A stretch of 64,000 nucleotides of DNA from Singulisphaera sp. GP187 (lineage in GTDB: Bacteria; Planctomycetota; Planctomycetia; Gemmatales; Gemmataceae): NCBI GenBank assembly GCA_945868575.1, contig CAMBMH010000003.1:331-64330 (forward strand). The letters run 5' to 3'. Shown here in pieces: positions 41,834-64,000 of this stretch; the stretch's first letter is position 1; each line of letters opens with the position of its first letter. The notes beneath the pieces are model-generated. The model was not told where the DNA came from. It worked only from the letters and a program-made list of their open reading frames with translations, and did no database searches. The position numbers and the translations under genes were made by a program.

Positions 41834-44461
41834 CTATTTGACGACCTGGGCTGTGGCGCGCGATTCGGCGGTCTTTTCCACGGAACCGATTTTGGCGGAG
41901 GAGCGAATCGTCAGCCTGATCGGGCGGTTGGGTAGAAGATCTTCGGATAACTTCACGGGGATGGTGATCCGGGTTTGATCGGCGGGGATCTCGACCGGCT
42001 CCACCGTCCCCTGACCCTCCTCGGCAAAAACGACCTCCACCCGAACCGGCCCATCGTATTGGGACAGACGGTTTACCGTTAGGGCCAAAGTCGCCTCGGT
42101 TCCGGGACGCCAGCGCCCCACGGGTATAGCGGTGACATCAAAGATCCGGTTAGGGACATAGGTGACCGGGATCGACTCGGTGAAATCGATCACACTGCGC
42201 CTGATCTTTTCGTCTTTTTCGATCGTGTGCACCCGAAGCGAAAGGTTGTACACGCCGGGAGGAATGTTGTTTCTGGCTTCGATGGTCACAGGAACGGAAT
42301 TTTCCCCGGCGGGGACAGCCAGGGGGCGATTGGCCAACACCCCCTTGAGGGTGAAGGAGTTCTGATTGGGAATGCCGACGATGGTGATTTCGGCGGCATC
42401 GGGAAAGCGTTCGGTTCGGTTGATTTTAAGATTCAGGTCGATGGTGCCGCCCGGGCCAATGATGTGGGCATCTTCGGCGATGGCGCCGACGGTGGCTCCC
42501 AGGGAGGGAAGGTCCCGATTGGCCACCCAGGTTCCCTGATCCAGTCGAACCAGAAGGGGCATGGTCTGGTTGTTGTTGGGGTTGGGATGAGGCCACAAGA
42601 GCGACGCGGTGGGGACCTCCTGCTGGGAGAGGGTTTCCCCCAGGGTGGCCGTTGCCCGCAAACGAAGCATTCCGACCGATTCTCCCGCGCGGGGCGAGGC
42701 GCCCAGCAAAATCAACCCCTGGCGTTGTCCCGGAACAAGCGTGACCCCATCGGAGGTGATTCCCGGGGGGAGAGCGGAAGGTTCGATCCGGATGGGGCCC
42801 GAAAAACCTCCCCTTCGCGAGGCAAAAACCATCAAGGCATTCGATGCCCCGGGACGGAAATTGAGTCCATCAGGCTGGGCCTGATTGGCGGGAATGGCCA
42901 CCACCGAAAAACCGGGCCGCTGGGGGCCGACCCGGAGCCCATAAACACATTTGGGCCCGGCCATCAGATCCGATTCGCGGTGTGTGACCCGGATCAGATA
43001 GTCCCTGTCTTCGGTGGCGGTGAAGACCATCGTGGCGGGATCTTCGGTGCGGGAAAAGAAGATCTGCGGATGGAGGATTTCCGCGTTATCGTCCAGGTCC
43101 AAAAGGGGCGCGTCGGGCTTCTTTCCGGGGGTGGGGAAGCGAAATACCGCCAATTGCAGATCCAGATCGGAGCCGAGTTTATCGCCGATCATTTCCAGCG
43201 CGATCCGGTCTCCGCGTTTGGCCGCGAAACGGTACCAGTCGCGATCCCCCTTCTTTTCAAACCAACCTGCGATCTCACAAGGGGCGCTGATCCTCTGGGC
43301 ATCGGCCCAATCGTTGTTTGTGCCGTTGTCGCGGACACTCCTATCGTGGGCGATCGCCACCAAAAAGGGGAGGGAAGTTCCATTGGGCCCGGCAATCGAC
43401 TCCTCGAAAGCTTCCAAAAACGCCATGCGCGGTAGCCTTATGGTTCGGGGGACAAGGCCGGTTGCCGATTCCGGAGCTTTGAGCTCGACTTCGGCTTTCT
43501 CCAGCCCCTGTTCCATGTCAAAGGCGGGTTTGGCATCGGGAAGATTCCAACCGAAAACGGTCACCTTTTCGGTTTTTCCGGCCTCTATTGCCCCTGGGAA
43601 AACACCCTGCACCACGGGTTCGGTGGCATGGGTAAGGTGATAAAACGCATCAGGTCCACCCATCACATAAGCCTGGCTGGTTAACCGGACAATCAGGGGG
43701 CCATCCTTTTCGGGAGTGTAGACCAGGATCGTATCGTTTTCGAAAAGGGCGCGCCCCGAGGCGACCCGTCGGCCGCCTGTTTCAAAAAGCTCAAGCATAG
43801 GGGCTAGGCGGCTGTCTATCGAGCTGGTTCGCAGGACGAGGGTGAGTTTTTGTCCTTTGGTCCCTTCGATACGGAAATAGTCGACATCGGTTGGGGTCTG
43901 AATGGCGCCGGTCATGCCCTGGCCGCGTCCCAAAGACTGGGCCTCTGACACATCGCTGTTGGGCTCTGTTTCGACGAGTTCGGCGGGTCTACCTTTGTCG
44001 TTTAAGGAACCCGAGCGGACCAGGAAGAGGCGCGGATTGCTGATCCCCAGGCTTCCCGTCATCCGCAGGTCATAAAGCCCGGTTTGGGCGTCCCGGGGAA
44101 CGCGGACCCTCACGGTCCATTGGGTCTGATTGGCGGGGGTGGTCATTGCCGTGGGGCGTGGCGCGGTGCGGGAAGGTGGTGGCGTTCCACGCGGTGGAGT
44201 TGGCGGGGCGACTTCCACCCTGGTCACCGAAACCAGTTCCAGTCCAGGCAGCCCCGACACGATTCCCTGGATTTCGCCTTGGTTGTTGGTGGTCACAACG
44301 AGGTCAGTTTCCGCGCCGGGCTGGACCGCTGCAGGGTAAATCGAGATGAGCTGGTGTCCGGTAGCCCCTTCGCGGATTTGGGCGAATGCGCTCTCCTGGA
44401 CGACCGTGATCAAGGCCATGATCGAAAGGAAAAGGCCCCTAAAGGACTGTTTATGGGTCAT
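41834..44461 (-). CDS. Large secreted protein with PPC (pre-peptidase C-terminal)-like and Ig-like beta-sandwich domains
   Basis: Start MTHKQSFRGLFLSIMALITVVQESAFA at 44461. PPC-like motifs DVDYFRIEGTKGQKLTL, DRDWYRFAAKRGDRIAL, DRDYLIRV. Repetitive beta-rich sequence throughout. Confidence 0.75.
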   Translation of the reverse strand: MTHKQSFRGLFLSIMALITVVQESAFAQIREGATGHQLISIYPAAVQPGAETDLVVTTNNQGEIQGIVSGLPGLELVSVTRVEVAPPTPPRGTPPPSRTAPRPTAMTTPANQTQWTVRVRVPRDAQTGLYDLRMTGSLGISNPRLFLVRSGSLNDKGRPAELVETEPNSDVSEAQSLGRGQGMTGAIQTPTDVDYFRIEGTKGQKLTLVLRTSSIDSRLAPMLELFETGGRRVASGRALFENDTILVYTPEKDGPLIVRLTSQAYVMGGPDAFYHLTHATEPVVQGVFPGAIEAGKTEKVTVFGWNLPDAKPAFDMEQGLEKAEVELKAPESATGLVPRTIRLPRMAFLEAFEESIAGPNGTSLPFLVAIAHDRSVRDNGTNNDWADAQRISAPCEIAGWFEKKGDRDWYRFAAKRGDRIALEMIGDKLGSDLDLQLAVFRFPTPGKKPDAPLLDLDDNAEILHPQIFFSRTEDPATMVFTATEDRDYLIRVTHRESDLMAGPKCVYGLRVGPQRPGFSVVAIPANQAQPDGLNFRPGASNALMVFASRRGGFSGPIRIEPSALPPGITSDGVTLVPGQRQGLILLGASPRAGESVGMLRLRATATLGETLSQQEVPTASLLWPHPNPNNNQTMPLLVRLDQGTWVANRDLPSLGATVGAIAEDAHIIGPGGTIDLNLKINRTERFPDAAEITIVGIPNQNSFTLKGVLANRPLAVPAGENSVPVTIEARNNIPPGVYNLSLRVHTIEKDEKIRRSVIDFTESIPVTYVPNRIFDVTAIPVGRWRPGTEATLALTVNRLSQYDGPVRVEVVFAEEGQGTVEPVEIPADQTRITIPVKLSEDLLPNRPIRLTIRSSAKIGSVEKTAESRATAQVVK

Positions 44462-44745
44462 GGCGGGTAGACTCCGCAGGTGGTTTAGGTCGATTATGAT
44501 CGACTTTTGGCCATGTGCCATCTAATGGTGGATCGTTGTTTTAAGGGTTAGCGACTTAACCCGATCCCATCATCTTAGTTTACCCACATGAAAGTACCCT
44601 CCCAAGCGGAATTCGCCTGGGAGTGCACGAAAACAACTCATCTTCAATGGATGCAATACACTTGAGGGGGGGAGCATTTCCGATTTGCCACTCTCCCAAA
44701 CCCAGTATTCGGTAAGTTTGGGATCCATCCACTTAAATGTAAATT

Positions 44746-45366
44746 TTAGGAGGCAAGTGGTGCCAAATGAGCCTTGCCTGCCTCACGCAACTCTTTTTTG
44801 TCTCGGAAAATCCGGATCCTAAGGGCGTTTCCGGAAATACCCAGTTCGTTTTGCAACTCGTGCGTCTCCTTTTCGTGGTAACGGCGAATCCGTTCCGCAT
44901 TTTCCGGGAACTCTTCCAAAACCTCAAGGAGCACGCTCCGGCGAAGGTCCCATTCTTCGGTTTGCTCGGCAACGGCGAACGGATCACTGGAAAGCTCGGG
45001 ATGTTCGTACTCTTCACCAGTTTCCAGATTGGTCGAATAGTATCCACCAATTCGGACCCGTTGCCCCTTGCGGTTCCGGGAGCGGGGATTCACACAATCC
45101 CATGGTTTTCCACGAAGTTGGCGCCTCGCCAGATTCCGGATAAAACCCGTTACCCATCGAACCAGTATTTCGCCCTGTTTTTCTTTGTCATCACCCGCAA
45201 GGAATCCGGACCATTTATCCTGGCGTATCAGCAATTCCCAGACATCCGAAATCAGTGCCTCGGCCTCAAACCCACGATTTCCTAGCCTTTGATGTTCTTT
45301 TGCAACCGCATTCTGGATGTTTTTCATCTGGGATAAAAACAAGCTTTCAAACTGAACTTTGTTCAT
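44746..45366 (-). CDS. Divergent ECF-like sigma factor with an expanded linker
   Basis: Region 2-like ALISDVWELLIRQ...RWVTGFIRNLARRQLR. A ~50-aa insert. Region 4-like LLEVLEEFPENAERIRRYHEKETHELQNELGISGNALRIRIFRDKKELRE. Strong SD (GGGAGGAAATT ATG). Confidence 0.65.
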   Translation of the reverse strand: MNKVQFESLFLSQMKNIQNAVAKEHQRLGNRGFEAEALISDVWELLIRQDKWSGFLAGDDKEKQGEILVRWVTGFIRNLARRQLRGKPWDCVNPRSRNRKGQRVRIGGYYSTNLETGEEYEHPELSSDPFAVAEQTEEWDLRRSVLLEVLEEFPENAERIRRYHEKETHELQNELGISGNALRIRIFRDKKELREAGKAHLAPLAS

Positions 45367-45902
45367 AATTTCCTCCCTGGTGAATGAATTGTGATCGCCA
45401 GAACCTGATGTTCAAAGGCAATGAAGTGAACAGCAAACGGGTTAACGAATTGGTGCCCATCAAGGATCATTGGGCTGACTTTCCCCTTATTCGAGAAACG
45501 AAAAGTGGTGATCCAATTTGAATCACCCGGGAGTTCAGGGATTTCGGGAAAGGGAGGCGAGTTTAAAACGCCGGGCCGAAATATGGGTGGCCCAAATCGC
45601 AATCGGGACAGCCGGAATGGTGATGGGGTTGCCACAGTAATGGGGCGAAAGGATTTCCGCCCGGGTTTGACAGGGAGAGGGACCAAAATGAAACGGCCAA
45701 TGGAGACCTGGACATCACTCCCCCCTTTCTTGAAACAGGATGAATAACTATACGGGTAATGGAATCGTGGACACCCTTCGGAAAAACCCGGGAATGCCAG
45801 AATGAACGAAGTTCCCCCGCATTTTACTTCCCCGAAACGCCCCAAACATTTCACGGAATATTATGGTGCAACCATTTTTTGTCACAAAATCAATTTTGCC
45901 AA

Positions 45903-46241
45903 CTAGTTATAGAGATAATTCTGGTTGCTTTCGGACCGGCCTGCACACCTGCGACCCACAAGCTGGTGGATGGTGAGAGGCGTTCCCGCCTCTTTTTTGG
46001 CCGGAAGGATCGCGGGAAATGAAACGGGCCGCTCATCCGCAAAGTAGGAAGCTGCAAGATCGCAGGAAAACCATTTGCCATCAAAAAATCCCATGTGAAT
46101 ATCCCCCCGAAAAGCGCCCCTGCCCGAATTACCCCCCCACTCGACACGGGGAACGGCAATTTGGGCCCAGTTGTACCTTTCTTCCCTCCTGGTCCAAAGG
46201 AATTTCACGCAAATCGAGAATTGTCCAAAAGTAAGGACCAA
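45903..46241 (-). CDS. Hypothetical ORF (possibly a gene remnant)
   Basis: Only weakly protein-like (…RVEWGGNSGRGAFRGDIHMGFFDGKWFSCDLAASYFADERPV…). TTG start; no family recognised. Confidence 0.25.
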   Translation of the reverse strand: MVLTFGQFSICVKFLWTRREERYNWAQIAVPRVEWGGNSGRGAFRGDIHMGFFDGKWFSCDLAASYFADERPVSFPAILPAKKEAGTPLTIHQLVGRRCAGRSESNQNYLYN

Positions 46242-46253
46242 AGCAGCAAAAAC

Positions 46254-46607
46254 TTATCCACCCAAACCCAACACCACCACTTGCCAGCCATCCGGGTCGC
46301 GAAGCTTTAGGATTTGTCCGCCCCAACTGGTCTCCTCATGCGCGGGAAGGTTCCACAAATGACCAAACTTCTCAACATCCTCGACCTCAAGGACCAAATG
46401 GACCCTTTCGGAGGGTTCCTGCAAAGCCAAGGGGCGCTTTTCGCGGGCCATATCAAGAATTTCGATTTTGAAACCACCTGGCCCGGATAAAATTACGCCC
46501 CTCGCACCCGGCCTGTCCCAGCTTTGCACCGGGCAAAAACCAAGCATATTCTGATAAAAGGAGGTCATTTCCTCATATTTGTTCGTTGCAAGCGCAAGGC
46601 GGCTCAT
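46254..46607 (-). CDS. VOC/glyoxalase-bleomycin-resistance family protein
   Basis: 117 aa, single VOC-like module (FYQNMLGF...FKIEILD...VHLVLEVEDV...ILKLRDPDGWQVVV). GGAG about 9 nt upstream of ATG 46607. Confidence 0.75.
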   Translation of the reverse strand: MSRLALATNKYEEMTSFYQNMLGFCPVQSWDRPGARGVILSGPGGFKIEILDMAREKRPLALQEPSERVHLVLEVEDVEKFGHLWNLPAHEETSWGGQILKLRDPDGWQVVVLGLGG

Positions 46608-46836
46608 GGGGAAACTCCAAAGACCCCGCAAAATCCCGGGGCGACCCTGCCCAAAAAGTAAAAGTTGTGTGATAACTAGAATAGGATAAAAGGGTTGGGT
46701 CTGCAGTTTTGGATGGGTTTACGGTAAAACGGAAAAATCCGCAAACATTTCCCAAGCCAGCCCGTTAGTCCCATACAGTTGTCCGCTCGGACCTACGAAC
46801 CTCCTCATTTCTTACCGGATCGCGGGATATCCCATC

Positions 46837-49800
46837 ATGCGCACCTCCTGGAAAAACTTTGTCCTCCTGACACTCGGTCTTTGGACCACCGCACCGATTC
46901 TTCGGGGACAAGGGCAGGAGCCCGGATACTTAGAGACTTTTTCCCTGGCCAAGGACCGAACCAGCGCTTTGGCCCAGCTGATTCCCGGAACCGAGGATTA
47001 TTACTACTACAACTGTTTGCATGCGCTCAATTTGGGCCAATTTGAAAAGATTGAATCGTTTACCCGACCATGGCTGGAACGGTTTGGCCAAACCCAGCGC
47101 CTCAATGAAATCCAGACCCGCACAGCTCTTCTTGCCTACGAGAAGGACCCAAAGAAAACTTTCGAGTTCCTCAAAAACCGGACCGGTCTGACCTTCAATC
47201 ATCAGAAGGAAATCATTGGGGTCGCCCCGAACCTTCCGACGACACTCGATCAAAAGGTCTTCTCTCGCGAAGTCCTTTTGGCCGAGTCGCTTCGTCGCTG
47301 GCGCAATCTGGACAACTTTGAGGACGCGGCGCTCGACTGGGTCGCCAAGGAAAATCTCGATTGGGAAAAAAGGCGCAACCTCCTTCAAAGGGTTCAGCGT
47401 CCCGATACCCCCAATCTGGTGGAACATATTGTCAACGATGACCAGGCACCGCACCCCCAGGCATTTGGCGCCTACACGGTAAGTCGGCTTTTGACACTTG
47501 CCCAGCTTGAGGAGTTGGTTGCCAAAAAGCCTGATTGGATCAACCATCCCGCCATGCTGCAGGCCTGGTTGCCCAAACTTCAACCAGGCGCTGATTCCGA
47601 CTGGAAGCGCAATCCCGATCAGATTGTCGCCTATCTGGATCGTATGAAGGCATTTGCTGATCGCCTCGCTCCACTCCACAATTCCCTCAAGGCCAATGTT
47701 CTCTACCAGCGACTGGTCCACGACCGCAAACAGGGAACGCTCAACAAGGCCCGTTTCCTCGAATATCTGTCCCTTCCGCGCCAGCAGCCCTACATGGCCA
47801 AGGAAATTAATGAATCCGAAAACTCGGTTCGTTTTCCTGCCAATCTGGGTGTCAATTATGAGTCGTTGACACTTCTCCCCCCGGTCCAGACAGATGAGGA
47901 ACTGGTTCGTGCCTACCTCAAACATTTTCTTGTCGAAGCCGAATCGCCCCGCGAATTCGAGCGATTTATTAACTCCGATTATCTCAACAATGTGTTGGCG
48001 GAGGTAAAAGTCGAAAATGGGTTGGGCGATGCCGAACGCTGGGCATCTCTATTGCCTCCCGAAACCTTCAAAACCCTTCGCGAGCGGATCGACATCGATT
48101 TTGCCCCAACCAACAAAACCGAATTTGCAGTCGATGAACCGGTCGTGCTTGACCTTTTTGTCAAGAATGTCCCCTCCATGATGGTAAAGGTTTTCGAGGT
48201 CAATACCGCCAATTTCTACAAGACCAACCTCCGCGAAATCGACACGGACATCAACCTCGACGGACTGGTCGCGAACGAGGAAAAGACCCATGTGTACCAG
48301 GAATCGCCGCTGCGGCGCATTGCCCGGAAATTTGAGTTCAAACTGGACAAGCCTGGTGTTTATGTCATTGATTTTATCGGTGGCGGTAAATCGAGCCGGG
48401 CCCTGATCCGCAAGGGGCGACTTCAGAGTCTGATATCGACCACACCTGGTGGCCAGGCTGTCACCATTCTCGATGAAAAAAATCAGAAGGTCAACGACGC
48501 AAGCGTTTGGCTCTCCGGAAAGGAATATAAACCCGATGAAAAGGGTATTGTTCTCCTCCCCTTCAGCAATGAACCTGGTCGCCGCCAAATTGTCCTGACC
48601 CGGGGCGGATCTTCCAGCCTCGATACCATCACCCACCAAGGCGAGGACTACCAATTCACGGCGGGCCTGCATGTGGACCGCGAGGCACTCCTTTCCCAGC
48701 GGATGGCGACGATCCTTGTACGGCCGGGACTCAGGCTTTCGGGCTCGCCTGTCTCCCTCAAGCTCCTCGAGGATGTCCGGCTACGCATCACCTCGACAGA
48801 TACCCAGGGGATCAACACCACCGCCGAGGTGCCCGGATTCCAACTTCTTGAAGATCGCGAAACCACACACGAATTCCGCGTTCCCGAGGGAACCTCCCGC
48901 CTCGTCTTCACCCTGGAGGGGAAGATCAAAAACCTGAGCAAGGGAAGAACCGATTCGGTTTTGGTTCAAAATGCGATCGACCTGAATAACATCCTTAAAA
49001 CGGACAAAATAGAAGATATTCACCTGGTTCGCTATGCCGAAGGGGTTGTCCTTGAGGTGGTGGGCCGAACCGGCGAACCCCGCGCCGATCGCGCCGTAAA
49101 TGTGGCACTCAAGCACCGCGATTTCCGCGAACTGGTCCAGGTCAGCCTCAAAAGCGACGCCAAGGGACGCGTTTACCTGGGCAGGCTCGAGGGAATTGTC
49201 CGGGTGGACGCGACCGGCTCCGAGGGGGTGCCACATTCCTGGCCCATCGAAGGAGACAAAGCCTCCTCACGGCAATTGATCCACTCCGTCGCAGGGGAAC
49301 TCATCCAGCTCCCTTACACCGGCGTATTGGCCCAGGCCGACCGTTCCGAATTTTCCCTTTTTGAGATAGTTGGAAATATGCCCAAGGCGGACCGCTTTGG
49401 GGCAATCAAGGTTGTCAATGGTTTGATCACGATCGATGGACTTGAGCCCGGTGATTATCAGCTTTGGGTAAAACCCTCCAACGAGCCGATCCGGATCCGG
49501 GTGGTAAAAGGGAAAGTGATCGCCAACCATGTTTTGGGTGAAACGCGCAACCTCCGGGTTCTTCCTCTCAAACCCCTCGCGGTTGGGGAGATGCGTGTCG
49601 AGGGTAACGATCTGGTAATTCGGGTTGAGAATCCTTCCGGCTTTTCGCGTATCCATCTTTTCGCAACACGCTATCAGCCTGGCCTGTCTGCTTTTGCCCA
49701 GATGGACAAGGTGCGCGCGCCGGAACTCGACGGCGTTCTGCCCGGTCAAGCTCCTTCGGTATTTATTACCGGAAGAAACATAGGCGATGAATACCGATAT

Positions 49801-52800
49801 GTCCTCGATCGCCGTGGACAAAAGAAATATCCCGGTGTTATGGCAGAAAGGCCAACGCTACTTCTTAACCCGTGGGCCGTGCGTGACACCAGCACGGGCG
49901 AGCAAATCCCCACAAGTGGAGAAGCCTTCGGAACCAAGGGCGGCGCTGCGCCTCCAAGGCCCGCTAGTTCGTTGGCGGACCGTTTGGCTGAGGGTGTTCC
50001 GGGCGCTGTCGATGTTTCCGCCTTTGCGGATCTTGATTTTCTTGCTAATGCCTCCACTGTGGTCACCAACCTCGTTCCTGACAAGGAGGGTATACTCAGG
50101 ATTGCCCTGAAGGATCTGGGTGATCACCAGTTGATCCATGCGGTTGCATGTGATCCGTTCCAGACGGCAACCCGGTCGATCAAACTTCCCATCACCGATT
50201 CGAAGCTTTTGGACCAAAGGCTGCGCAAGGGATTGGATCCCGCTGGCAAATTCCTCCGGGAGAAAAAAGTCAGCGTCCTTGCAAAGGGCGAGACTTTCAC
50301 GGTGGACGACATCCGCTCGAGCAAGTTTGAGATCTACGATAATCTTGCCAAGGTTCAAACCCTGTTCCACACCCTGAACAAGGATCAGGCGCTGGTCGAG
50401 TTTTCCTTCCTTTCCAATTGGCCGAAACTCAAAATTGAGGAAAAACGGGCGTTGCTTTCCAAGTATGGTTGTCATGAACTCCACTTTTTCATCTACCAGA
50501 AGGACCGGGCATTTTTTGATGAGGTCGTGCGCCCATTTCTGATCAACAAGAAGGATAAAACCTTTGTTGATCTGTGGTTGCTTGGTGAAGACCTCACGGG
50601 TTTCCTGAAACCCTGGGAATATGCGCGTCTTAACACCATGGAACGGGTCCTTTTGGCCAAGCGACTCAAGGATGAGTTCAAAACCGGCAAGCATATCGAG
50701 GAACGCCTAAGGCTGACCCCGGTGGACATCCAGAAACAGATCGCATGGTTTGACACCGCGGTCGCCTCAACCGGCTTGGGTGATGGGGGCAGGAAATTGG
50801 ATGAGCTCCGCCGGAATGCGGAAAAGGAAGCGATCAACGCTCAACGATTTGGTATGTCAGGGGGCGGCGCGATGATGGGCCGCGCGGGCGGAATGGCTGG
50901 AAATGCCCCAAGTGACCCAATGGCCGCAGGATTGCCCGCATTTGGGGATGCTGCGTCGGGAGCGCCAGCGCCCGGCGGTGCTGCGAACAATCTCGGTATG
51001 ATGCCTCCAGGAGGTCCGGGCGGTGGTGGTGGATTTGGTGGTGGATTGCCGGGAGCACCACCCGTTGCTGCCAAGCCGGAATTGGCCAGGGATATGCCCA
51101 AACTGGCACTCGGAAGGGGAGCCCAGCTCAAGTCCGCTTCCAAGGACCTTAAAGAGGCCAAGGACAAGTTTGATCGTAATGTCGAGCTTGGTCTGGGAGT
51201 GGAAGATTCCGCCGGAAAACGAGATTGGGCTCTCCGAAAGGAAGAGCTTTTTGAGCAAAATCGCGGACTTGCACGCAGGGGTCAACTCTATCGACCCATT
51301 GAACCCACCAAAGAATATGCGGAAAACAACTACCGCAATCTCCCCATTCAGAACCAGAATGCAGACCTTGTGGGAGCAAGCGCATTTTGGCTCGACTATG
51401 TCCGCCATGAAGGCAAGGGGCCATTCCTTTCCAAAAACATCGCGGAGGCCTCGCGCAACTTCAGTGAATCAGTCTTCGCTTTGGCGGTGACGGAATTGCC
51501 GTTTGAATCGGCCAAGCATGATCTCAAATATGATGGTGGAAAACTATCCGTAGTTCCCGCCAGTCCGGCTATCGCTTTCCATGAAGAAGTGCGTCCGGCC
51601 GAAACCGCCCAAAACCAGGCGGCCATTCTGGTCAGCCAAAACTTCTACAGGCTTGGCGAGCGTTTCCGTGAGGAAAACGGAGAAAAACTCGACAAGTTTG
51701 TTACAGGGGAGTTTCTTTCACAAACCGGATATGGCTGCCAGATCGTGGTGACCAACCCGACCTCTTCGCGGAGAAGACTGACCCTTTTGGTTCAGATCCC
51801 GGTTGGTTCCATCGGGCTTGCACCAAGCCTGGCAACCCGATCAATACCGCTTGACCTGGAGCCTTACAGGACTCACACGCTTGATTACTCGTTCTATTTT
51901 CCCGTCGCTGGCAAATATCCCCAGCTCCCAGTTCAGGTGAGCGAAAAGGGGAAAAGCGTCGCCTCAGGCCTTGGAACGGCGTTCGTTGTGCTTGATAAAC
52001 CCAGCAAGGCGGACACCGCCTCATGGGAACATATCTCCCAATTTGGATCAGATAAAGAGGTGCTCGACTTCCTCGGTCGCGAAAACCTCCAGGCGCTCAA
52101 CCTCGACAAGATCGCTTTCCGAATGAAGGATCAGGCGTTCTTTGGACAGGTGACCGCGCTTCTCTCCTCCAGGCATGTCTACCAAAACACGCTCTGGTCC
52201 TATTCGCTTCTTCATGGGGATCCGGCCACCGCCTCCGAGTTCCTCAAATACAACGACACGATCGTCAACGATTGCGCCGGGCCAATTCAAAGCCCCCTGC
52301 TAAAGGTTGACCCGGTGGAACGCTCCACTTATGAACACCTGGAATACAAACCACTGGTAAACGCCCGGGCCCACGCTCTTGGAGCCAAACCGGTCATCGT
52401 CAATGACCGCCTGGCTGGTCAATACCGCGCCTTCCTCAAACTGCTCAGTTATCAGCGACAAGCCGGGGACAACGAAAACCTCTCTCTGGTTGTTTATCTG
52501 CTGATGCAGGACCGAATCGAAGAAGCTTTGGAAGCTTTTGCCAAAATTGATCCGGCCAAGGTGCCCACCAAAATCGCTTACGACTATGCCAAGGCATGGC
52601 TCATGCTCGCCACGGAGCAACCCGACAAGGCCCGTGAGATCGCCAAAGTCCACGAAAAACACCCTGTCGATCGTTGGCGCGATTCGTTTGTGCGGATCCT
52701 TGAGCAAGTCGACGAGGCCCAGGGGCGCGACACGGCAAGCAAGCCCGCCGATCCGGAAAACCGCGCGGACACCCAGGACAAACTTGCCGCTGCCGAGCCC

Positions 52801-53370
52801 GCGTTCGACTTCGCGATCGAAGGCGCAAAGCTCAATATCTCATGGCAAAATCTCCGTGAGGTTACGGTCAATTACTACCTGATGGATGTGGAATTGCTTT
52901 TCAGTCGCAATCCGTTTGTACAACAGTCAGGCGGCGAATTCGCCTTCATCAAGCCGAACCTGACCCGGGTGGTAAAGTTGGACGCCGCCAAGGGGAAGAC
53001 CGACTTGGGACTTCCTCCGGAATTAGCCAAGCGCAATCTCCTGGTAGAAGTCACCTCAGAAGGCAAGACCCGGTCCGCGCCTTACTATTCCAGCGCAATG
53101 GATCTCAAACTCTTTGAGAATCAGGGACAACTCAAGGTTTCCAACCGCGAAGGGACCAAGCCATTGGCCAAGGTCTATGTGAAGGTCTACGCCCGTCTCG
53201 CCGATGGCTCGGTCAAGTTCCACAAGGACGGCTACACCGATCTGCGTGGGCGCTTTGACTACGCCACGGTAAGCACCCCAGAAAAACAGGGCATTACCCG
53301 GTTCTCGGTTTTGGTCTTGTCCGAAGATCAGGGAGCGACCATCCGCGAGACCAACCCGCCTCAACGCTAA
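46837..53370 (+). CDS. Giant (2177 aa) secreted protein of unknown function
   Basis: Uninterrupted 6.5-kb ORF with signal peptide MRTSWKNFVLLTLGLWTTAPILRG. Helical N-terminal region, multiple beta-sandwich-like segments, central G/A/P/M-rich linker, helical TPR-like segment, C-terminal beta-sandwich (KDGYTDLRGRFDY). A strong terminator follows. No family recognised. Confidence 0.9.
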   Translation: MRTSWKNFVLLTLGLWTTAPILRGQGQEPGYLETFSLAKDRTSALAQLIPGTEDYYYYNCLHALNLGQFEKIESFTRPWLERFGQTQRLNEIQTRTALLAYEKDPKKTFEFLKNRTGLTFNHQKEIIGVAPNLPTTLDQKVFSREVLLAESLRRWRNLDNFEDAALDWVAKENLDWEKRRNLLQRVQRPDTPNLVEHIVNDDQAPHPQAFGAYTVSRLLTLAQLEELVAKKPDWINHPAMLQAWLPKLQPGADSDWKRNPDQIVAYLDRMKAFADRLAPLHNSLKANVLYQRLVHDRKQGTLNKARFLEYLSLPRQQPYMAKEINESENSVRFPANLGVNYESLTLLPPVQTDEELVRAYLKHFLVEAESPREFERFINSDYLNNVLAEVKVENGLGDAERWASLLPPETFKTLRERIDIDFAPTNKTEFAVDEPVVLDLFVKNVPSMMVKVFEVNTANFYKTNLREIDTDINLDGLVANEEKTHVYQESPLRRIARKFEFKLDKPGVYVIDFIGGGKSSRALIRKGRLQSLISTTPGGQAVTILDEKNQKVNDASVWLSGKEYKPDEKGIVLLPFSNEPGRRQIVLTRGGSSSLDTITHQGEDYQFTAGLHVDREALLSQRMATILVRPGLRLSGSPVSLKLLEDVRLRITSTDTQGINTTAEVPGFQLLEDRETTHEFRVPEGTSRLVFTLEGKIKNLSKGRTDSVLVQNAIDLNNILKTDKIEDIHLVRYAEGVVLEVVGRTGEPRADRAVNVALKHRDFRELVQVSLKSDAKGRVYLGRLEGIVRVDATGSEGVPHSWPIEGDKASSRQLIHSVAGELIQLPYTGVLAQADRSEFSLFEIVGNMPKADRFGAIKVVNGLITIDGLEPGDYQLWVKPSNEPIRIRVVKGKVIANHVLGETRNLRVLPLKPLAVGEMRVEGNDLVIRVENPSGFSRIHLFATRYQPGLSAFAQMDKVRAPELDGVLPGQAPSVFITGRNIGDEYRYVLDRRGQKKYPGVMAERPTLLLNPWAVRDTSTGEQIPTSGEAFGTKGGAAPPRPASSLADRLAEGVPGAVDVSAFADLDFLANASTVVTNLVPDKEGILRIALKDLGDHQLIHAVACDPFQTATRSIKLPITDSKLLDQRLRKGLDPAGKFLREKKVSVLAKGETFTVDDIRSSKFEIYDNLAKVQTLFHTLNKDQALVEFSFLSNWPKLKIEEKRALLSKYGCHELHFFIYQKDRAFFDEVVRPFLINKKDKTFVDLWLLGEDLTGFLKPWEYARLNTMERVLLAKRLKDEFKTGKHIEERLRLTPVDIQKQIAWFDTAVASTGLGDGGRKLDELRRNAEKEAINAQRFGMSGGGAMMGRAGGMAGNAPSDPMAAGLPAFGDAASGAPAPGGAANNLGMMPPGGPGGGGGFGGGLPGAPPVAAKPELARDMPKLALGRGAQLKSASKDLKEAKDKFDRNVELGLGVEDSAGKRDWALRKEELFEQNRGLARRGQLYRPIEPTKEYAENNYRNLPIQNQNADLVGASAFWLDYVRHEGKGPFLSKNIAEASRNFSESVFALAVTELPFESAKHDLKYDGGKLSVVPASPAIAFHEEVRPAETAQNQAAILVSQNFYRLGERFREENGEKLDKFVTGEFLSQTGYGCQIVVTNPTSSRRRLTLLVQIPVGSIGLAPSLATRSIPLDLEPYRTHTLDYSFYFPVAGKYPQLPVQVSEKGKSVASGLGTAFVVLDKPSKADTASWEHISQFGSDKEVLDFLGRENLQALNLDKIAFRMKDQAFFGQVTALLSSRHVYQNTLWSYSLLHGDPATASEFLKYNDTIVNDCAGPIQSPLLKVDPVERSTYEHLEYKPLVNARAHALGAKPVIVNDRLAGQYRAFLKLLSYQRQAGDNENLSLVVYLLMQDRIEEALEAFAKIDPAKVPTKIAYDYAKAWLMLATEQPDKAREIAKVHEKHPVDRWRDSFVRILEQVDEAQGRDTASKPADPENRADTQDKLAAAEPAFDFAIEGAKLNISWQNLREVTVNYYLMDVELLFSRNPFVQQSGGEFAFIKPNLTRVVKLDAAKGKTDLGLPPELAKRNLLVEVTSEGKTRSAPYYSSAMDLKLFENQGQLKVSNREGTKPLAKVYVKVYARLADGSVKFHKDGYTDLRGRFDYATVSTPEKQGITRFSVLVLSEDQGATIRETNPPQR

Positions 53371-53405: not shown

Positions 53406-53441
53406 GAGGAGGACTGGCTTGGCCATGTCCTCCTCTTTTTT
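53406..53441 (+). terminator. Rho-independent terminator of the giant gene
   Basis: Perfect 9-bp stem gaggaggac / gtcctcctc with a 12-nt loop, followed immediately by TTTTTT. Confidence 0.85.
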
Positions 53442-53653
53442 CATTCAAGGCTTGTTCGTGCCAAGGTTTCAAAAAATCGGCTCAAGCACTTTCAAACACC
53501 AGTGCTCCTATCGATGCTCTGTTTTCATTTTCAAAGGGGGATAACCCATAAATTGATTGAAGTTTCGCAGTGTCTCGAAAACGGATCCTGGTCGGAAATG
53601 GATAACGACCCATGTCAGAGGCTGTATATTGCTCCGGAAAGGGAGGATATTTT

Positions 53654-54868
53654 ATGAAGTCCTTACCTTCCAACAGCAAAAACAAAAGGGGGCAGCGCAA
53701 TGGTTCCAGCCAGAAAAACTCCCTTACCGAAAGTCGGGTAGGTGGAAACACTTTGGAGCGTCCCAAGTCCACACAGGGGGTTATCAAAAGTCGCCTTCGT
53801 TCCCTCTCATCCCTTCTGCTTTTGGGAGGAGTCTCGTTTGGGGTTACATTTGGCGCCATAAACCTATTTCAAAAAGTTTCCAGCAGGCCGTGGAGCAACC
53901 CCCCGGGAATGGTCTGGGTCTGTGCAGGGGAATTTACCATGGGCTCGGGATCGACACTGGGTTGGCCTGATGAAAAACCCGCCCACCTCGTTCGGGTGGA
54001 CGGTTTTTGGATGGACCAGACAGAAGTTACCAACGCTCAGTTCAGGAAATTTGTCGACGCGACGGGTTATGTCACCACCGCGGAAAAGGCACCCGATCTC
54101 GATGAGATCATGCGCCAATCCCCGCCCGGTACGCCGCCCCCCCCGAAAGAATCCCTTGTTCCTGGATCCCTGGTATTTGAAACCACCAAAGGCCCCGTCA
54201 ATCTCAACGACTATTCCCAGTGGTGGCATTGGACTCCCGGGGCATCCTGGAAGCACCCCGAAGGTCCCAATAGTAACCTCGAAGGGCGTGAAAACCACCC
54301 TGTTGTCCAAGTCTCCTGGGAGGATGCCACGGCCTATGCCAAATGGGCGGGAAAAAGACTCCCGACCGAGGCGGAATGGGAAATCGCGGCACGGGGTGGG
54401 CTTGAGCAAAAGAATTATGTCTGGGGTGATGACCTTCCGACCGATGAGGGCATCTTCGCAAACCTCTGGCAGGGAAATTTTCCTTATAAAAATACCGAAA
54501 AAGACGGCTATACCCTGACCGCTCCGGTTAAGTCCTTCGAGCCAAATGGTTTGGGGCTCTACGATATGGCCGGAAATGTCTGGGAATGGTGTTCGGATTG
54601 GTATGACCGCGATCTCTATTCCAAAAGAATTGGCAAAACTCCCGCAAATAACCCAACAGGGCCTGAAAAAAGCAACGACCAGAATCAGCCGTTTCTGACC
54701 CAGCGGGTTCAACGAGGTGGATCGTTTCTTTGTAATGATGGCTATTGCTCGCGGTATCGGCCAAGCGCAAGACACGGCAGTTCACCAGACACCGGGATGT
54801 CCCATGTCGGGTTTCGATGTGTCGCAACCAATTTTCCGGTTTGTGAAAACCTGATACCAACCCCTTGA
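53654..54868 (+). CDS. Formylglycine-generating enzyme (FGE/SUMF1 family)
   Basis: MVWVCAGEFTMGS, HLVRVDGFWMDQTEVTNAQFRKFV, GNVWEWCSDWY, RGGSFLCNDGYCSRYR. ATG 53654 with GGGAGG upstream. Confidence 0.92.
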   Translation: MKSLPSNSKNKRGQRNGSSQKNSLTESRVGGNTLERPKSTQGVIKSRLRSLSSLLLLGGVSFGVTFGAINLFQKVSSRPWSNPPGMVWVCAGEFTMGSGSTLGWPDEKPAHLVRVDGFWMDQTEVTNAQFRKFVDATGYVTTAEKAPDLDEIMRQSPPGTPPPPKESLVPGSLVFETTKGPVNLNDYSQWWHWTPGASWKHPEGPNSNLEGRENHPVVQVSWEDATAYAKWAGKRLPTEAEWEIAARGGLEQKNYVWGDDLPTDEGIFANLWQGNFPYKNTEKDGYTLTAPVKSFEPNGLGLYDMAGNVWEWCSDWYDRDLYSKRIGKTPANNPTGPEKSNDQNQPFLTQRVQRGGSFLCNDGYCSRYRPSARHGSSPDTGMSHVGFRCVATNFPVCENLIPTP

Positions 54869-54899: not shown

Positions 54900-56672
54900 A
54901 TGATGAAAAAGCCGAAATTTCTCCCCATTGTCTTTGTTGGTCTGGGAATCGCCCTCGGCTATGCCGCGGCATCAGGCTCGATTCGCCGGGTAAATTGGCT
55001 GAATGCCAGCTCGCACACAACACCTCACGCAAATGCCCAATCCAGCCCCAGTGCACAGGGGGGATCCTGTTGTGGTGATTCCATCAGCAAGGAAGAGCAA
55101 CTTGCGGTCGCCAGCCACAACGAATTTGTCTCCACCAATCTGAAAAAGTCAGGCGGCAAGCCCAACTTCTGCATCATTTGGGGAGATGATGTCGGGCAAT
55201 CCAATATCAGCGCCTACACCCGTGGCCTGATGGGTTACAAAACCCCGAACATTGATCGGATCGCGACGGAAGGGCTCCTTTTCACCGACTATTACGGCGA
55301 ACAAAGTTGCACGGCTGGCCGCGCTTCCTTTATCACCGGTCAGCATGGTCTTCGTACCGGATTGACCAAGGTTGGCCTTCCTGGTGCCACCATTGGACTT
55401 AGGGCCGAAGATCCAACGATCGCCGAATTGCTTAAACCTCTGGGCTATGCAACCGCCCAAATTGGCAAAAATCACATTGGGGACCGAAACGAATTTCTTC
55501 CCACGGTTCACGGTTTTGATGAATTTTATGGCAACCTCTACCACCTGAATGCGGAAGAGGAGCCCGAACATCCTGATTATCCAAAGGATCCCGCATTCCG
55601 CGCCAAGTATGGCCCCCGTGGCGTTCTTGATTGTCGGGCCACCGCCAAGGACGACGAAACGGTTGATCCCCGCTTCGGCAAAGTTGGCAAGCAAACCATC
55701 AAGGACACCGGGCCCCTGACCCGCAAGCGGATGGAAACCATCGACGATGACATCGCGAACCGTGCGGTGGATTTCATCCAACGCCAGTCAAAGGCTGACA
55801 AGCCTTTCTTTGTGTGGGTCAATTTCACTCACATGCACTTCAGGACCTATGTCAAGCCTGAAAGCAAGGGCCAATCGGGTCGCTGGTTGGGTGAGTACGC
55901 CGATGCCATGATCGACCACGACAAGAATGTCGGCACGGTTCTCAAATCCTTGGATGATGCCGGCATCGCCGATAACACCTTCGTCCTTTACAGCACCGAC
56001 AATGGCCCCCACATGAACTCATGGCCCGATGCCGCCATGACTCCTTTCCGCAACGAGAAAAACTCCAACTGGGAAGGTGCTTATCGTCTCCCCTGTGTCG
56101 TCCGATGGCCTGGAAAAATCAAGCCGGGAAGCGTCTCCAACCAGATCGTCTCCCACCACGATTGGCTGCCCACAATCGTCTCGATCGCTGGCAATACCAC
56201 GGCCAAGGAATCTCTCAAAAAGGGGCTCAAAATTGATGAAACCAATTACAAGGTCCACCTCGACGGCTACGACCTGGTTCCCCACCTTACGGGCCAATCG
56301 GAAAAGGGACCTCGCGAATCGTTCATCTATTGCAACGATGACCAGCAGATCACGGGATTGCGTTATGACAACTGGAAACTTGTGTTCATGGAACAGCGCG
56401 CCCAGGGCACCCTGCGCATTTGGGCCGAGCCCTTCGTTAATCTTCGGGTTCCCAAAATCTTCAACCTCAGGTTGGATCCCTATGAACGGGCCGATGTCAC
56501 TTCCAACACCTACTATGACTGGCTTATGGACCACGCCTTCCTGATGATCCCCGCCCAGGATTATGTTGGGCAATTCCTGATGACATTCAGGGAATTCCCC
56601 CAAAGGCAAAAAGCCGCAGCCTTCAACCTGGACGAAGTCCTCGAGAAGTTGAAAACCAACCCGGGCAAATAA
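54900..56672 (+). CDS. Arylsulfatase (Cys-type, ~590-aa class)
   Basis: NFCIIWGDDVGQSNIS, active-site CTAGRASFITGQH, GKNHIG. Confidence 0.92.
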   Translation: MMKKPKFLPIVFVGLGIALGYAAASGSIRRVNWLNASSHTTPHANAQSSPSAQGGSCCGDSISKEEQLAVASHNEFVSTNLKKSGGKPNFCIIWGDDVGQSNISAYTRGLMGYKTPNIDRIATEGLLFTDYYGEQSCTAGRASFITGQHGLRTGLTKVGLPGATIGLRAEDPTIAELLKPLGYATAQIGKNHIGDRNEFLPTVHGFDEFYGNLYHLNAEEEPEHPDYPKDPAFRAKYGPRGVLDCRATAKDDETVDPRFGKVGKQTIKDTGPLTRKRMETIDDDIANRAVDFIQRQSKADKPFFVWVNFTHMHFRTYVKPESKGQSGRWLGEYADAMIDHDKNVGTVLKSLDDAGIADNTFVLYSTDNGPHMNSWPDAAMTPFRNEKNSNWEGAYRLPCVVRWPGKIKPGSVSNQIVSHHDWLPTIVSIAGNTTAKESLKKGLKIDETNYKVHLDGYDLVPHLTGQSEKGPRESFIYCNDDQQITGLRYDNWKLVFMEQRAQGTLRIWAEPFVNLRVPKIFNLRLDPYERADVTSNTYYDWLMDHAFLMIPAQDYVGQFLMTFREFPQRQKAAAFNLDEVLEKLKTNPGK

Positions 56673-57521: not shown

Positions 57522-58994
57522 CTACGCCAACACATCCCGAACGACTTTGCCGTGGATATCCGTCAGGCGGAATTGGCGACCCTGATAGCGGAAGGTCAGC
57601 CGCTCATGGTCGATCCCGCAAAGGTGCATGATGGTCGCCTGGTGGTCGTGAACATGGACAGGATCCTTGACGATGTTCCATGCGAAGTCGTCCGTCGCGC
57701 CATGGACATGACCGCCTTTCACGCCCCCGCCCGCCATCCAAAGGCTGAATGCCCGGCCAAAGTGGTCGCGCCCGTTGGGTTTTCCTTCGGGGCCCTGACC
57801 AAATGGGGTCCTGCCGAACTCACCACCCCAGATCACCAGCGTATCATCCAGCATTCCCCGCATTTTCAGATCCTTGACAAGCGCGGCGGAAGGCTGATCG
57901 GTGTCGAGGCATTGCATTTCCAACTGGGTGAACAGATTGGAGTGCTGATCCCATCCAGCATGCATGAGCTGAACAAACCGTGTTCCACGCTCCAACAATC
58001 GGCGGGTAATGAGGCAATGCCGGGCAAAGGACCCCGGTTCATGAACCTGGGGACCATACATGTCCAGGATGTGTTTGGGCTCATCCGAAAAATCGAGCAG
58101 GCCAGGAACGCTCGTCTGCATCCGGAACGCCATTTCATATTGGGAAATGCGGGTGTCGATTTCCGGATCACCGAAGTCCCCCAAATGGGCCCGGTTCAGC
58201 TCGCCAATACCTTCCAGGAGTTTTGCGCGAGATGATCGGCTGACACCTTCGGGATTGTTGAGATAGGGGACCGGATCGCCCGCGCCCCGAAACCGCACAC
58301 CCTGATAACGGGTCGGCAAAAAACCACTACCCCAGTAGTAATCAAAAAAGAGCTGACCGCAGGTTTTGCCCCGATCGGAAGAAGTCATCACCACAAATGA
58401 AGGCAAATCCGTCGTTTCCGAACCAAGCCCATAGGTCAGCCAAGCGCCCATGCTGGGCCTTCCGGGAACCTGTGCCCCAGTCATGAAAAATGTCACACCA
58501 GGCGCATGGTTTACCGCCTCGGTGTTCATTGTCCGAATCAGGGTGATGTCATCGGCGATGGAACCGATGTGGGGCATCATGCTTGTGATTTCCATTCCCG
58601 ACTGGCCATATTTTTTAAATGGCTTGATGGCGGGAACAATTGGATGCTTGGAATAACCGGCGGTCATGGTGGAAAGGCGCGTTTTCCCCCGGACACTTTC
58701 CGGAAGCTCCTGCATCTTCATCTTTTCCATCACCGGTTTAGGATCAAAAAGATCCACATGGGTGGGAGCCCCGCCTTGCCAGAGATAGACCACCCTTTTG
58801 GCCTTGGGTGGAAAATGAGGCAAACCGGATAGCCCTGGCAAACCCGCCGGGGCCGCCTGGGTCTGCGCGCCGCCGCCCATAAGGCTGGCCAACGCGGCTG
58901 CTCCAAGACCCGTGCTGGTTTTCCCCAGGAAATCCCGACGGGCCAAACGGTCAACCTGATTTTGAGCAAACAAATTGGGTGTGAAAAGGTTCAT
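57522..58994 (-). CDS. DUF1501 family protein (Tat-exported)
   Basis: Twin-arginine leader LARRDFLGKTSTGLGAAALA; GRDHFGRAFSLWMAGGGVKGG. Lies 3 nt downstream of the DUF1553 gene. Confidence 0.9.
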   Translation of the reverse strand: MNLFTPNLFAQNQVDRLARRDFLGKTSTGLGAAALASLMGGGAQTQAAPAGLPGLSGLPHFPPKAKRVVYLWQGGAPTHVDLFDPKPVMEKMKMQELPESVRGKTRLSTMTAGYSKHPIVPAIKPFKKYGQSGMEITSMMPHIGSIADDITLIRTMNTEAVNHAPGVTFFMTGAQVPGRPSMGAWLTYGLGSETTDLPSFVVMTSSDRGKTCGQLFFDYYWGSGFLPTRYQGVRFRGAGDPVPYLNNPEGVSRSSRAKLLEGIGELNRAHLGDFGDPEIDTRISQYEMAFRMQTSVPGLLDFSDEPKHILDMYGPQVHEPGSFARHCLITRRLLERGTRFVQLMHAGWDQHSNLFTQLEMQCLDTDQPSAALVKDLKMRGMLDDTLVIWGGEFGRTPFGQGPEGKPNGRDHFGRAFSLWMAGGGVKGGHVHGATDDFAWNIVKDPVHVHDHQATIMHLCGIDHERLTFRYQGRQFRLTDIHGKVVRDVLA

Positions 58995-58997
58995 GTT

Positions 58998-61891: not shown

Positions 61892-62578
61892 ATGCTATCT
61901 AACTATCACCAAATGAGTTTTGGAGGCACGACAACCCTCGTTGCACTGATTCCTTGCCTTCTATCGGGTTGTTCCGTGGAGTGGAGGCTGGGTGGTGTGA
62001 GAGGCTCGGGCGAAGTCCAAAAGGAATCCCGGGAGGTTGGCGGATTCAGTAGCATCAACCTCCACTCCCTCGGCAAGGTGGTCATCAAACATGGGGAAAA
62101 AGAATCCCTCACCATCTCGGCAGAGGACAATCTCCTTCCCCTTCTGGTATCGAGGGTAGCCAATGGCACCCTGCATTTGGAAATTTCCAACGGAACAAAC
62201 CTGGGACCAACCAAGCCGATCGAATACATCGTCGAGGTAAAGACACTTGAGGACTTGCATGTTTCCGGAGTGGGTCAGGTGGAGAGTAAGGACCTGAAAT
62301 CCCCAAAGCTTTCGGTTAGCCTTTCGGGCGTTGGCAACATCGATTTGCAGGGTTCTGTCGAGGTTTTGGATTTGAAAGTTTTCGGGGTGGGGAGTTTTCA
62401 GGGGGCGAATCTTCAAACCAAAAAGGCTAAGGTCCGAAATAGTGGGGTTGGAAACGCCATCGTAAATGTGAGCGAACAACTGGATGCCACCGTTTCCGGA
62501 GTGGGAACAATCGAATTCCTTGGCAATCCATCAGTAAATCAATCGGTTTCCGGAATCGGAAAGATCCGGAAGCGATAA
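61892..62578 (+). CDS. DUF2807 / head-GIN-domain lipoprotein
   Basis: Lipobox LLSGC. Repeated xSGxGxh strands (VSGVGQVE, LSGVGNIDL, VFGVGSFQ, NSGVGNAIV, VSGVGTIEF). The start may be ATG 61913 instead. Confidence 0.8.
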   Translation: MLSNYHQMSFGGTTTLVALIPCLLSGCSVEWRLGGVRGSGEVQKESREVGGFSSINLHSLGKVVIKHGEKESLTISAEDNLLPLLVSRVANGTLHLEISNGTNLGPTKPIEYIVEVKTLEDLHVSGVGQVESKDLKSPKLSVSLSGVGNIDLQGSVEVLDLKVFGVGSFQGANLQTKKAKVRNSGVGNAIVNVSEQLDATVSGVGTIEFLGNPSVNQSVSGIGKIRKR

Positions 62579-62869
62579 ACAGTTTTCACCCGATTCGGCT
62601 CCCGGGTACGCCCGCTCCCCGAACCAAAGGGCCTTCAAAGCGGAACTTGTCGTGATGTTCCTAAACGAGTCCAGCAAATTCAATAAGGGCTTTCCAGGTC
62701 AAGAATTCCGGAGATGTTTTGTTCACATTTTCCCAAAATCCCAAAGCCAATCCGGAATAAATTTACTTTGTCAGTTGAATATTTGACATTGTCAATATAA
62801 AAGTATAAATAGAGTAATTTGATCCTAAAGGTTGCCAGTATTTCTGGTGGGCCAGGAGGCTTGCATACC

Positions 62870-63492: not shown

Positions 63493-63700
63493 ATGTTGAA
63501 AGCAAATGGAAACAACGAAAACACCCTGCAAATTGCTGTGCTTTTTTGCAAAGTCGGGAAGTTATTTGTAATCTTTGAATCCAATTTGGATAAATTTTTT
63601 AATTGTATTTTTTATTATTATAATTTATATAAAAATAAAAATAGTATTATTAAAATTTAAATTTTCAAAATTTACCATTATCTCCAGAGGTCTGTGTTCC

Positions 63701-63814: not shown

Positions 63815-64000
63815 TTTCACTGGATGGTTTTTTGATTTAAAATAGCCTCTACTTCAAATGTTATTCTTAATTCAATTTAATTAAAATCGCCACTAAGCTC
63901 AGTTTATATTATATACTTTAAAAATGGTTATTTTTTTAGCAATTCATATAGTATTGTATTTGTTTTTTTTGAGTGAATTAAATTATTTAATTATACCATA

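Follow-up and report, generated by a model that had tools for sequence, protein, structure and literature searches.

A stand-alone planctomycete gene for a predicted exported member of the CAGE family with a variable low-complexity insert

Introduction

CAGE proteins form a family that is already described and named, in a preprint only (McCafferty et al., 'The CAGE complex', bioRxiv 10.1101/2025.09.22.677704, version 2026-04-03). In eukaryotes, where its proteins include Tetrahymena thermophila CAGE1 (UniProt I7MLD7) and Dictyostelium discoideum DDB_G0291229 / AbpF (XP_635154.1), an uncharacterised protein of ~2,300 amino acids (aa) assembles into a hollow homotetramer of ~1 MDa, as visualized by cryo-electron microscopy (cryo-EM). 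The shells measure ~22 x 12-16 nm and have slit-like openings and a cavity of ~600 nm3; the chain comprises 15 structural domains and is without Pfam or SCOP domains. More than two thirds of the homologues are bacterial, mainly from Planctomycetota and Verrucomicrobiota, and these mostly carry signal peptides of 21-22 aa. The function of the family is given as unknown by its authors (McCafferty et al.). Here we analyze a 2177-aa protein encoded at positions 46837-53370 (plus strand) of a 64,000-nucleotide stretch of DNA from Singulisphaera sp. GP187 (contig CAMBMH010000003.1; hereafter the window), and we identify it, by comparison of sequences, as a planctomycete member of the CAGE family.

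Results

Relation to the CAGE family

Searches of Pfam, NCBIfam and PDB sequences with the 2177-aa protein returned nothing at E <= 1, in line with the statement in the original prediction that no segment could be assigned to a known family. The protein nevertheless belongs, as judged from its homologues, to a family that has been described. Table S2 of the preprint lists the proteins that BLASTP matched to Dictyostelium CAGE, XP_635154.1, used as query (McCafferty et al.), and what we say of it refers to the matches listed in the accessible part of that table. Four homologues of the window open reading frame (ORF) could be mapped to accessions, and all four are present there. MEI6323950.1 (P0003) is 77% identical to our protein over 100% of the ORF and has an E value of 9e-139 and a query cover of 87% in Table S2. 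The corresponding values for WP_088253768.1 (P0016, Fimbriiglobus ruber) are 53% identity, 100% coverage, 9e-156 and 87%. Two proteins of Limnoglobus roseus (P0027 and P0028) complete the set: WP_149110087.1, with 54% identity in a local alignment covering 59% of the ORF (Table S2 E 6e-152, query cover 87%), and WP_149115146.1, with 56% in a local alignment covering 36% (E 2e-144, query cover 78%).

In Table S2, the four proteins are 27-31% identical to Dictyostelium CAGE. A 2,118-aa protein of Blastopirellula NORP48, also among the matches, agrees by organism and length with the ORF of one of our related loci (L045), which is 44% identical to the window ORF. No protein from Planctopirus, Gemmata obscuriglobus, Rhodopirellula or Gimesia was found among the matches listed. 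Among these same matches, the dictyostelid proteins at the top are followed immediately by bacterial ones, with ~30% identity to Dictyostelium CAGE and 92% coverage; their source groups are Pirellulaceae, Hydrogenedentota, Desulfobacterales, Verrucomicrobiota and Kiritimatiellia. This ranking hints at a possible gene transfer between bacteria and eukaryotes.

The protein had been called an orphan, and this description does not hold. A search of 5.8 billion proteins gave 1,355 homologues at E <= 0.001; the best 120 of the 1,355 are 2,086-2,188 residues long, mostly with 99-100% query coverage, and the lower coverage shown for some homologues arises because the BLAST alignment breaks at the insert described below. 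The phylogenetic distribution, whose determination had been proposed as a check, proved to be mostly planctomycete: when each species was represented by one genome, at least 583 relatives came to light, mostly in Planctomycetota, that extend across Gemmataceae, Planctomycetaceae, Pirellulaceae, Isosphaera and Thermoguttaceae and also into Verrucomicrobiota. With residues 25-1045 as query, an exhaustive phmmer search reached 2,825 clusters at E <= 1e-3 (clusters at 50% identity, from 1.84 billion representatives), 1,158 of them at E <= 1e-30. The closest named relative is a Gemmataceae bacterium protein with 77% identity. Presence in Planctomycetota and Verrucomicrobiota agrees with the distribution stated in the preprint. 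Full-length homology to an already characterised family, which the original prediction had regarded as incompatible with its view, is thus found as far as structure is concerned, but not for function.

Identity per alignment column is 0.6-0.9, without gaps, along the whole chain, the exceptions being the signal peptide, a short loop (residues 1026-1065) and an insert (residues ~1320-1480). Save for this one insert, strong purifying selection acts on the entire gene. Several genomes hold more than one copy. In a chromosome from a Gemmataceae metagenome-assembled genome (OZ245717.1, L025:1-16480), three CAGE paralogues stand in tandem on one strand, a partial one cut by the start of the locus and then copies of 2173 aa and 2181 aa; the chromosome carries a fourth copy at another place (L001). 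Two copies occur in at least five other genomes among the 79 related loci that we compared (JAIOPV01, JBNJEM01, JACNKX01, CAYFJO01 and NVWB01). At two loci, L068 and L011, a simple ORF caller gives versions of 3001 aa and 2589 aa, of which the tblastn match takes up only ~2,100 residues; these long versions are probably upstream open-frame extensions, not real fusions.

Export signal and composition

The sequence at the N-terminus, MRTSWKNFVLLTLGLWTTAPILRGQ, combines a basic n-region with a hydrophobic h-region and is without a lipobox. Of 174 homologues, 161 show the same pattern; the median presequence length is 21 aa, in agreement with the 21-22 aa stated for bacterial CAGEs. As the original prediction had proposed, the protein is thus predicted to be secreted, and export via Sec is the most likely route. 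The mature chain, of 2,153 residues, has a mass of 240 kDa. The earlier count of about five cysteines is exact (residues 60, 1105, 1212, 1634 and 1813), and the CxEQ thioester motif is indeed absent from the whole 2177-aa sequence. We likewise saw no evident catalytic motif, in agreement with the earlier view.

Domain architecture

The CAGE1 domain list of the preprint runs 1-105, 142-443, 444-555, 556-635, 636-748, 758-843 and 851-951, followed by 963-1021 + 1151-1195, 1244-1414 + 1519-1559, 1606-1738, 1751-1833, 1879-2011 and 2014-2215, in the order helical (domains 1-2), beta (3-8), beta 9-10 with helical 11, beta (12), helical (13-14) and beta (15) (McCafferty et al.). We modelled the window protein with AlphaFold2 in two halves, from alignments of 37 rows: model A, residues 25-1045 (pLDDT 84.5, pTM 0.80), and model B, residues 1046-2177 (pLDDT 70, pTM 0.56). 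The domain boundaries in the two models are colinear with the CAGE1 map, with offsets of ~25-45 residues (Table 1). The six beta-sandwiches of model A fall at residues ~419-526, 530-600, 605-715, 726-803, 814-907 and 915-981. In model B, a beta domain and a helical domain are followed by a disordered segment (1338-1496) and by helices at 1516-1551, before the chain returns to folded beta and helical domains. The repeated beta-sandwich-like segments and the helical block foreseen by the original prediction appear in the models as arrays of beta-sandwiches and as helical blocks, respectively. Its 'TPR-like' block sits in the modelled helical domain at residues 1857-1961, and its C-terminal beta-sandwich corresponds to residues 1989-2172.

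When 23 family members were compared with Pfam, weak TPR_19 and ANAPC3 matches appeared in one or two of them. Sub-threshold CarboxypepD_reg matches occurred, somewhere in the protein, in seven of the 23, and we place them in the C-terminal beta-sandwich domain by inference from its motif.

The block at residues 976-1025 (FITGRNIGDEYRYVLDRRGQKKYPG...RPTLLLNPWAVR) is among the most conserved parts of the protein, and yet in the model of the isolated N-terminal half its pLDDT falls under 50 from residue 983 on. Further conserved blocks lie at residues 1826-1850 and 2126-2150. CAGE1 domains 3, 8 and 9 are non-contiguous, and for this reason the probable packing partner of block 976-1025 is the C-terminal half or another subunit. 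The models suggest a contact element between domains or subunits, and not a disordered region. The cut at residue 1045 probably split non-contiguous domains, which would explain the poor modelling of residues 983-1045 and of the start of model B.

Compared with eukaryotic CAGE, the protein is alike in size (~2,100-2,360 aa), in the order of its helical and beta-sandwich parts, in its MG-like beta-sandwiches and in having no Pfam domain. Identity between the eukaryotic and bacterial proteins is only ~27-31%, however, and the eukaryotic proteins have no signal peptide and are ciliary or cytosolic, whereas the window protein is predicted to be exported.

The disordered insert

One segment departs from this conservation. 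Every homologue has a low-complexity stretch at the same place, and its sequence and length vary. In the window protein, Gly, Ala, Pro and Met abound in the centre of the insert (GMSGGGAMMGRAGGMAG...PPGGPGGGGGFGGG), and Lys and Glu in the flanks; a long insert of this composition sets the clade of the window protein apart from CAGE1, whose equivalent is an unassigned stretch of ~80 residues (1414-1496 in the CAGE1 domain list). Among the 111 homologues with locatable flanking anchor motifs, the insert is 85-174 aa long (median 113), compared to 163 in the window protein. Gly and Met are enriched ~2.4-fold, and the density of GGM-like motifs is ~20 times as high as in the remaining sequence. 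Present once per subunit, the insert may be a flexible cavity lining, tether, gate or bait.

Relation to alpha-2-macroglobulin

The original prediction had set aside alpha-2-macroglobulin (A2M) on the ground that CxEQ is missing. Bacterial A2Ms of the YfaS/MagD type are likewise not known to carry CxEQ, and its absence alone does not exclude the family. What speaks for the exclusion is, instead, the negative outcome of the Pfam and profile tests. None of the A2M-family models (MG2, bMG3/5/6/10, A2M, A2M_BRD, TED) matched the window protein at E <= 1; bMG3 was found in one of the 23 family members, at E 0.066, whereas ECAM relatives used as a positive control carry 11 A2M-type domains. Alignment of the family profile with E. 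coli ECAM by hhalign gave a probability of 0.09. This is a comparison with ECAM and not with a deep A2M profile, as a search seeded with ECAM gave only proteins that are 83-98% identical. Neither a single-sequence search nor a search with a 43-sequence profile found any A2M among PDB sequences, the only match being a spurious low-complexity one. The PDB set used for these and for the Foldseek searches was without the CAGE coordinates 11KS and 11KT.

The comparison of folds gives a different picture. In a Foldseek search of residues 25-1045 against the PDB, the 48 best matches were all A2M, C3, C5, TEP1 or CD109, with E values of 1e-10 to 4e-7, probabilities up to 1.0 and ~530-790 aligned columns. 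The template modelling (TM) scores of these matches are only 0.09-0.18, and across both models the A2M-type matches have TM scores of 0.08-0.18 with root-mean-square deviations above 19 A. Such low TM scores in spite of low E values point to a similar fold in a different arrangement. GH2 glycosidases and chains with immunoglobulin (Ig) domains score nearly as well as the A2M chains. Model B gave weaker matches, to the C3b alpha chain (E 4e-7), GH2 glycosidases and E. coli A2M NIE-MG1 (TMt 0.47). Table S1 of the preprint assigns CAGE1 domains 4-6 to YfaS_2nd, A2M_N_2 and MG4 (McCafferty et al.), and the UniRef name of the Fimbriiglobus and Limnoglobus homologues is 'Alpha-2-macroglobulin domain-containing protein'.

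These observations could be explained if the protein were a highly divergent, thioester-less member of the A2M/TEP family like YfaS/MagD, acting as a periplasmic protease trap in which the insert is the bait and its cleavage triggers entrapment. The Foldseek matches of both halves, the Table S1 assignments and the UniRef name all favor this explanation, as does an insert that is disordered and variable in length and sequence, like bait regions. Human A2M, too, is a hollow homotetramer that traps by means of a flexible bait region, and the A2Ms of bacteria reside in the periplasm. However, the likeness to the A2M/C3/TEP proteins, among them ECAM (YfhM) and YfaS/MagD, is a tandem array of MG-type beta-sandwiches at the level of fold. 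No sequence relation was detected in the searches above, the global TM scores (<= 0.18) point to another domain arrangement, and GH2 and Ig chains rank almost as high. The window protein has neither the thioester nor a lipobox for a lipoprotein anchor, and no neighbours of the pbpC or yfaSTAQP/mag type are conserved across the 79 loci. Furthermore, its large N-terminal helical domains have no counterpart in A2Ms, and eukaryotic CAGEs, being intracellular, fit a protease trap poorly. We therefore regard membership in the A2M family as unlikely. The array resembles A2M MG domains in fold and possibly in working principle, not in family membership.

The locus and its neighbours

The ORF is real: it is single and uninterrupted over 2177 codons, as originally reported, and begins at the first possible start codon past the upstream stop. 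The flanking signals of the original prediction also stood up to analysis. The gene has its own upstream gap, of 205 bp to a divergent glyoxalase-family gene, although a simple sigma-70 scan found no promoter consensus in it. On the 3' side is a strong terminator, in which the stem GAGGAGGAC / GTCCTCCTC spans 53406-53435 and T6 comes next; at -25.2 kcal/mol (z = -4.2), it folds better than all 200 shuffled sequences. A simple scan had missed this terminator because its stem-loop geometry lies outside the rules of the scan. The CAGE gene at this locus is monocistronic and stands alone.

A database representative, P0001, was reported as 100% identical to the window protein. It has Ile at residue 32, where the window has Leu (codon TTA, 46930 region), and the window sequence is therefore, on this comparison, a near-identical variant of the deposited protein. 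The P0001 cluster holds more members of 2177 aa, from NCBI, ENA and Logan.

Table 1. Features of the CAGE gene, its predicted product and the surrounding window
Feature	Position	Strand	Remarks
Presumed own promoter region (5' intergenic)	46632..46836	+	Between divergent glyoxalase-family gene and start codon
Predicted Sec-type signal peptide, ~residues 1-24	46837..46908	+	No lipobox, no twin-arginine motif
N-terminal all-helical region, residues 29-116 + 139-416	46921..48084	+	Model A, block pLDDT mostly 82-96; CAGE1 domains 1, 2
Six Ig-like/MG-like beta-sandwiches	48091..49779	+	Model A; CAGE1 domains 3-8
Conserved block, residues 976-1025	49762..49911	+	Column identity 0.87-0.90, invariant residues
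Beta domain (1099-1167), then helical domain (1170-1341)	50131..50859	+	Model B; CAGE1 domains 8b/10 and 11
Variable disordered low-complexity insert, ~residues 1320-1480	50794..51276	+	Column identity 0.11-0.23, 35-72% gaps; pLDDT < 50
Beta-sandwich region, residues 1562-1719	51520..51993	+	Model B; invariant motifs TNPTS and FYFP; CAGE1 domains 10b, 12
Two helical domains, residues 1730-1813 + 1857-1961	52024..52719	+	Model B; CAGE1 domains 13, 14
C-terminal beta-sandwich, residues 1989-2172	52801..53352	+	Model B; near-invariant motif KDGYTDLRGRFDY; column identity 0.92; CAGE1 domain 15
Intrinsic terminator	53406..53441	+	9-bp GC-rich stem with inner 4-bp extension, then T6
Glyoxalase-family gene	46254-46631	-	Divergent from the 2177-aa ORF
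FGE gene	53612-54868	+	Directly 3' of the CAGE ORF, 241-bp gap and terminator between
Sulfatase gene	54900-56672	+	Directly after FGE gene
Other sulfatase genes of the window	20370-22151, 22303-23763, 35989-37536
DUF1501 + PSCyt1/PSCyt2/PSD1 gene pairs	15671-20341, 57522-61520

From the FGE and sulfatase genes, the original prediction had drawn a hint of a cell-surface or glycan-related role in which the protein would act together with the two products. Both genes lie directly downstream on the same strand, and the protein is predicted to be exported. However, the terminator and the 241-bp gap separate them from the CAGE gene, and neither the protein nor the 23 family members showed a carbohydrate-binding or glycoside-hydrolase domain in Pfam searches. 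We clustered the ORFs of the 79 related loci and looked for FGE and sulfatase homologues within 10 kb of the gene. No FGE homologue was found at any of the 79, and a sulfatase homologue was present in three, adjacent in only one. The proposed check for conserved neighbours thus came out negative: across the 79 loci the CAGE gene has none. The apparent linkage to a sulfatase is expected by chance because there are four sulfatase genes in the 64-kb window. At L025, the gene directly after a CAGE paralogue is the DUF1501 orthologue (91% identical); neither an FGE nor a sulfatase gene intervenes. The glycan-related reading is largely refuted by this lack of conserved linkage, and we regard it as very improbable.

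DUF1501 was itself considered as a conserved neighbour and rejected. It lies within two genes of CAGE in 12 of the 79 loci, which equals the background expected for a family so abundant in planctomycetes (two copies in ~55 window genes). The set of sulfatase, FGE and DUF1501 genes is typical planctomycete gene content.

Finally, that the protein is a genuine orphan or the ORF spurious or not expressed, a notion that could draw on the want of any curated family match, is already refuted by conservation and scarcely conceivable: full-length homologues number in the thousands and share invariant motifs from one end of the chain to the other, chance cannot produce an open frame of 2177 codons in DNA of 53% GC, and start codon, signal peptide and terminator are all in place.

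Several other features of the window were recorded. An ORF of 895 aa (41834-44521, minus strand) has only a sub-threshold PPC-domain match, and all but two of the 79 related loci are without a homologue of it (identity 25-31% in these two). No Pfam match was obtained for three small ORFs (206, 163 and 112 aa; 44746-46241, minus strand). G+C content is 0.43-0.48 at both window ends (1-4000 and 62001-64000), compared to ~0.52-0.59 elsewhere, and no tRNA genes were found in the 64-kb window.

Discussion

The window locus is an ordinary member of the CAGE family, and we consider it very likely that its product, taken as a whole, is an exported planctomycete CAGE protein presumed to form a periplasmic hollow homotetramer. 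By analogy with the eukaryotic cryo-EM structures, four mature chains of 240 kDa would form, after Sec export, a hollow shell of ~0.96 MDa, and in the planctomycete this shell would sit in the periplasm. A hollow periplasmic homotetramer of ~0.96 MDa is, on this analogy, the most likely assembly.

Several points weigh against this reading. The link to CAGE is transitive, because it runs through homologues that are 53-77% identical to the window protein and not through a direct alignment of the window protein with a eukaryotic CAGE sequence. The agreement with CAGE1 is one of secondary structure and domain breaks, not of three-dimensional superposition on 11KS or 11KT; model B has only moderate confidence, and domains whose CAGE1 counterparts are non-contiguous are divided by the cut at residue 1045. 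The tetramer and its periplasmic location are carried over to the bacterial protein from eukaryotic complexes, which are the only ones studied. Eukaryotic CAGEs are also without signal peptides, and the bacterial and eukaryotic functions may therefore differ. Any function assigned to the shell is, moreover, a guess, and for the one that we propose next, the GGM-like motifs of the insert are an imperfect argument, since they occur in only 55 of 111 inserts.

We tentatively suggest that the shell acts, without ATP, as a container or holdase in whose cavity macromolecules are taken up or sequestered, a possibility to which we give less than even weight. The four disordered inserts may line, gate or bait the cavity of such a container. 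CAGE can be compared with chaperonin cages of the GroEL/GroES type. Both are symmetric homo-oligomeric hollow assemblies, in the case of CAGE as judged from the eukaryotic structures, and both have flexible Gly/Met-rich segments. The C-terminal GGM repeats of GroEL line its cavity, and GGM-like motifs are concentrated in the disordered insert of the window protein. However, CAGE has no ATPase domain and no similarity to GroEL/GroES in sequence or fold, and there is no ATP in the periplasm. Its cavity is also much larger and is not compartmentalised (McCafferty et al.).

A version of this proposal in which the shell works as an A2M-like protease trap is a minority reading with a small share of the probability. 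In its broadest form, which we think improbable, bacterial CAGE would be a periplasmic ATP-independent trap, a sister or functional analogue of tetrameric A2M, from which the eukaryotic CAGEs derived. The MG-like array would then build the wall of the cage, and the four hypervariable inserts per cage would serve as bait or gate, such that proteases or other macromolecules entering the enlarged periplasm of the planctomycete would be captured upon cleavage or engagement of an insert. The bacterial proteins that are, among the Table S2 matches listed, the best hits of Dictyostelium CAGE outside dictyostelids would be compatible with the inter-domain transfer that such a trap implies. If this were true, the cytosolic CAGEs of eukaryotes would derive from a bacterial device for envelope defence or uptake.

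CAGE is a newly recognised megadalton cage of which only eukaryotic complexes have been studied, even though bacteria supply more than two thirds of its members. For the bacterial form, this locus adds a stand-alone gene with a predicted Sec-exported product and no conserved partner genes, a family that often has several paralogous copies per genome, and a hypervariable disordered insert that is conserved in place. With these features, the range of hypotheses shrinks to a self-sufficient container that works in the periplasm without ATP, and they make the CAGE family testable in cultivable planctomycetes.

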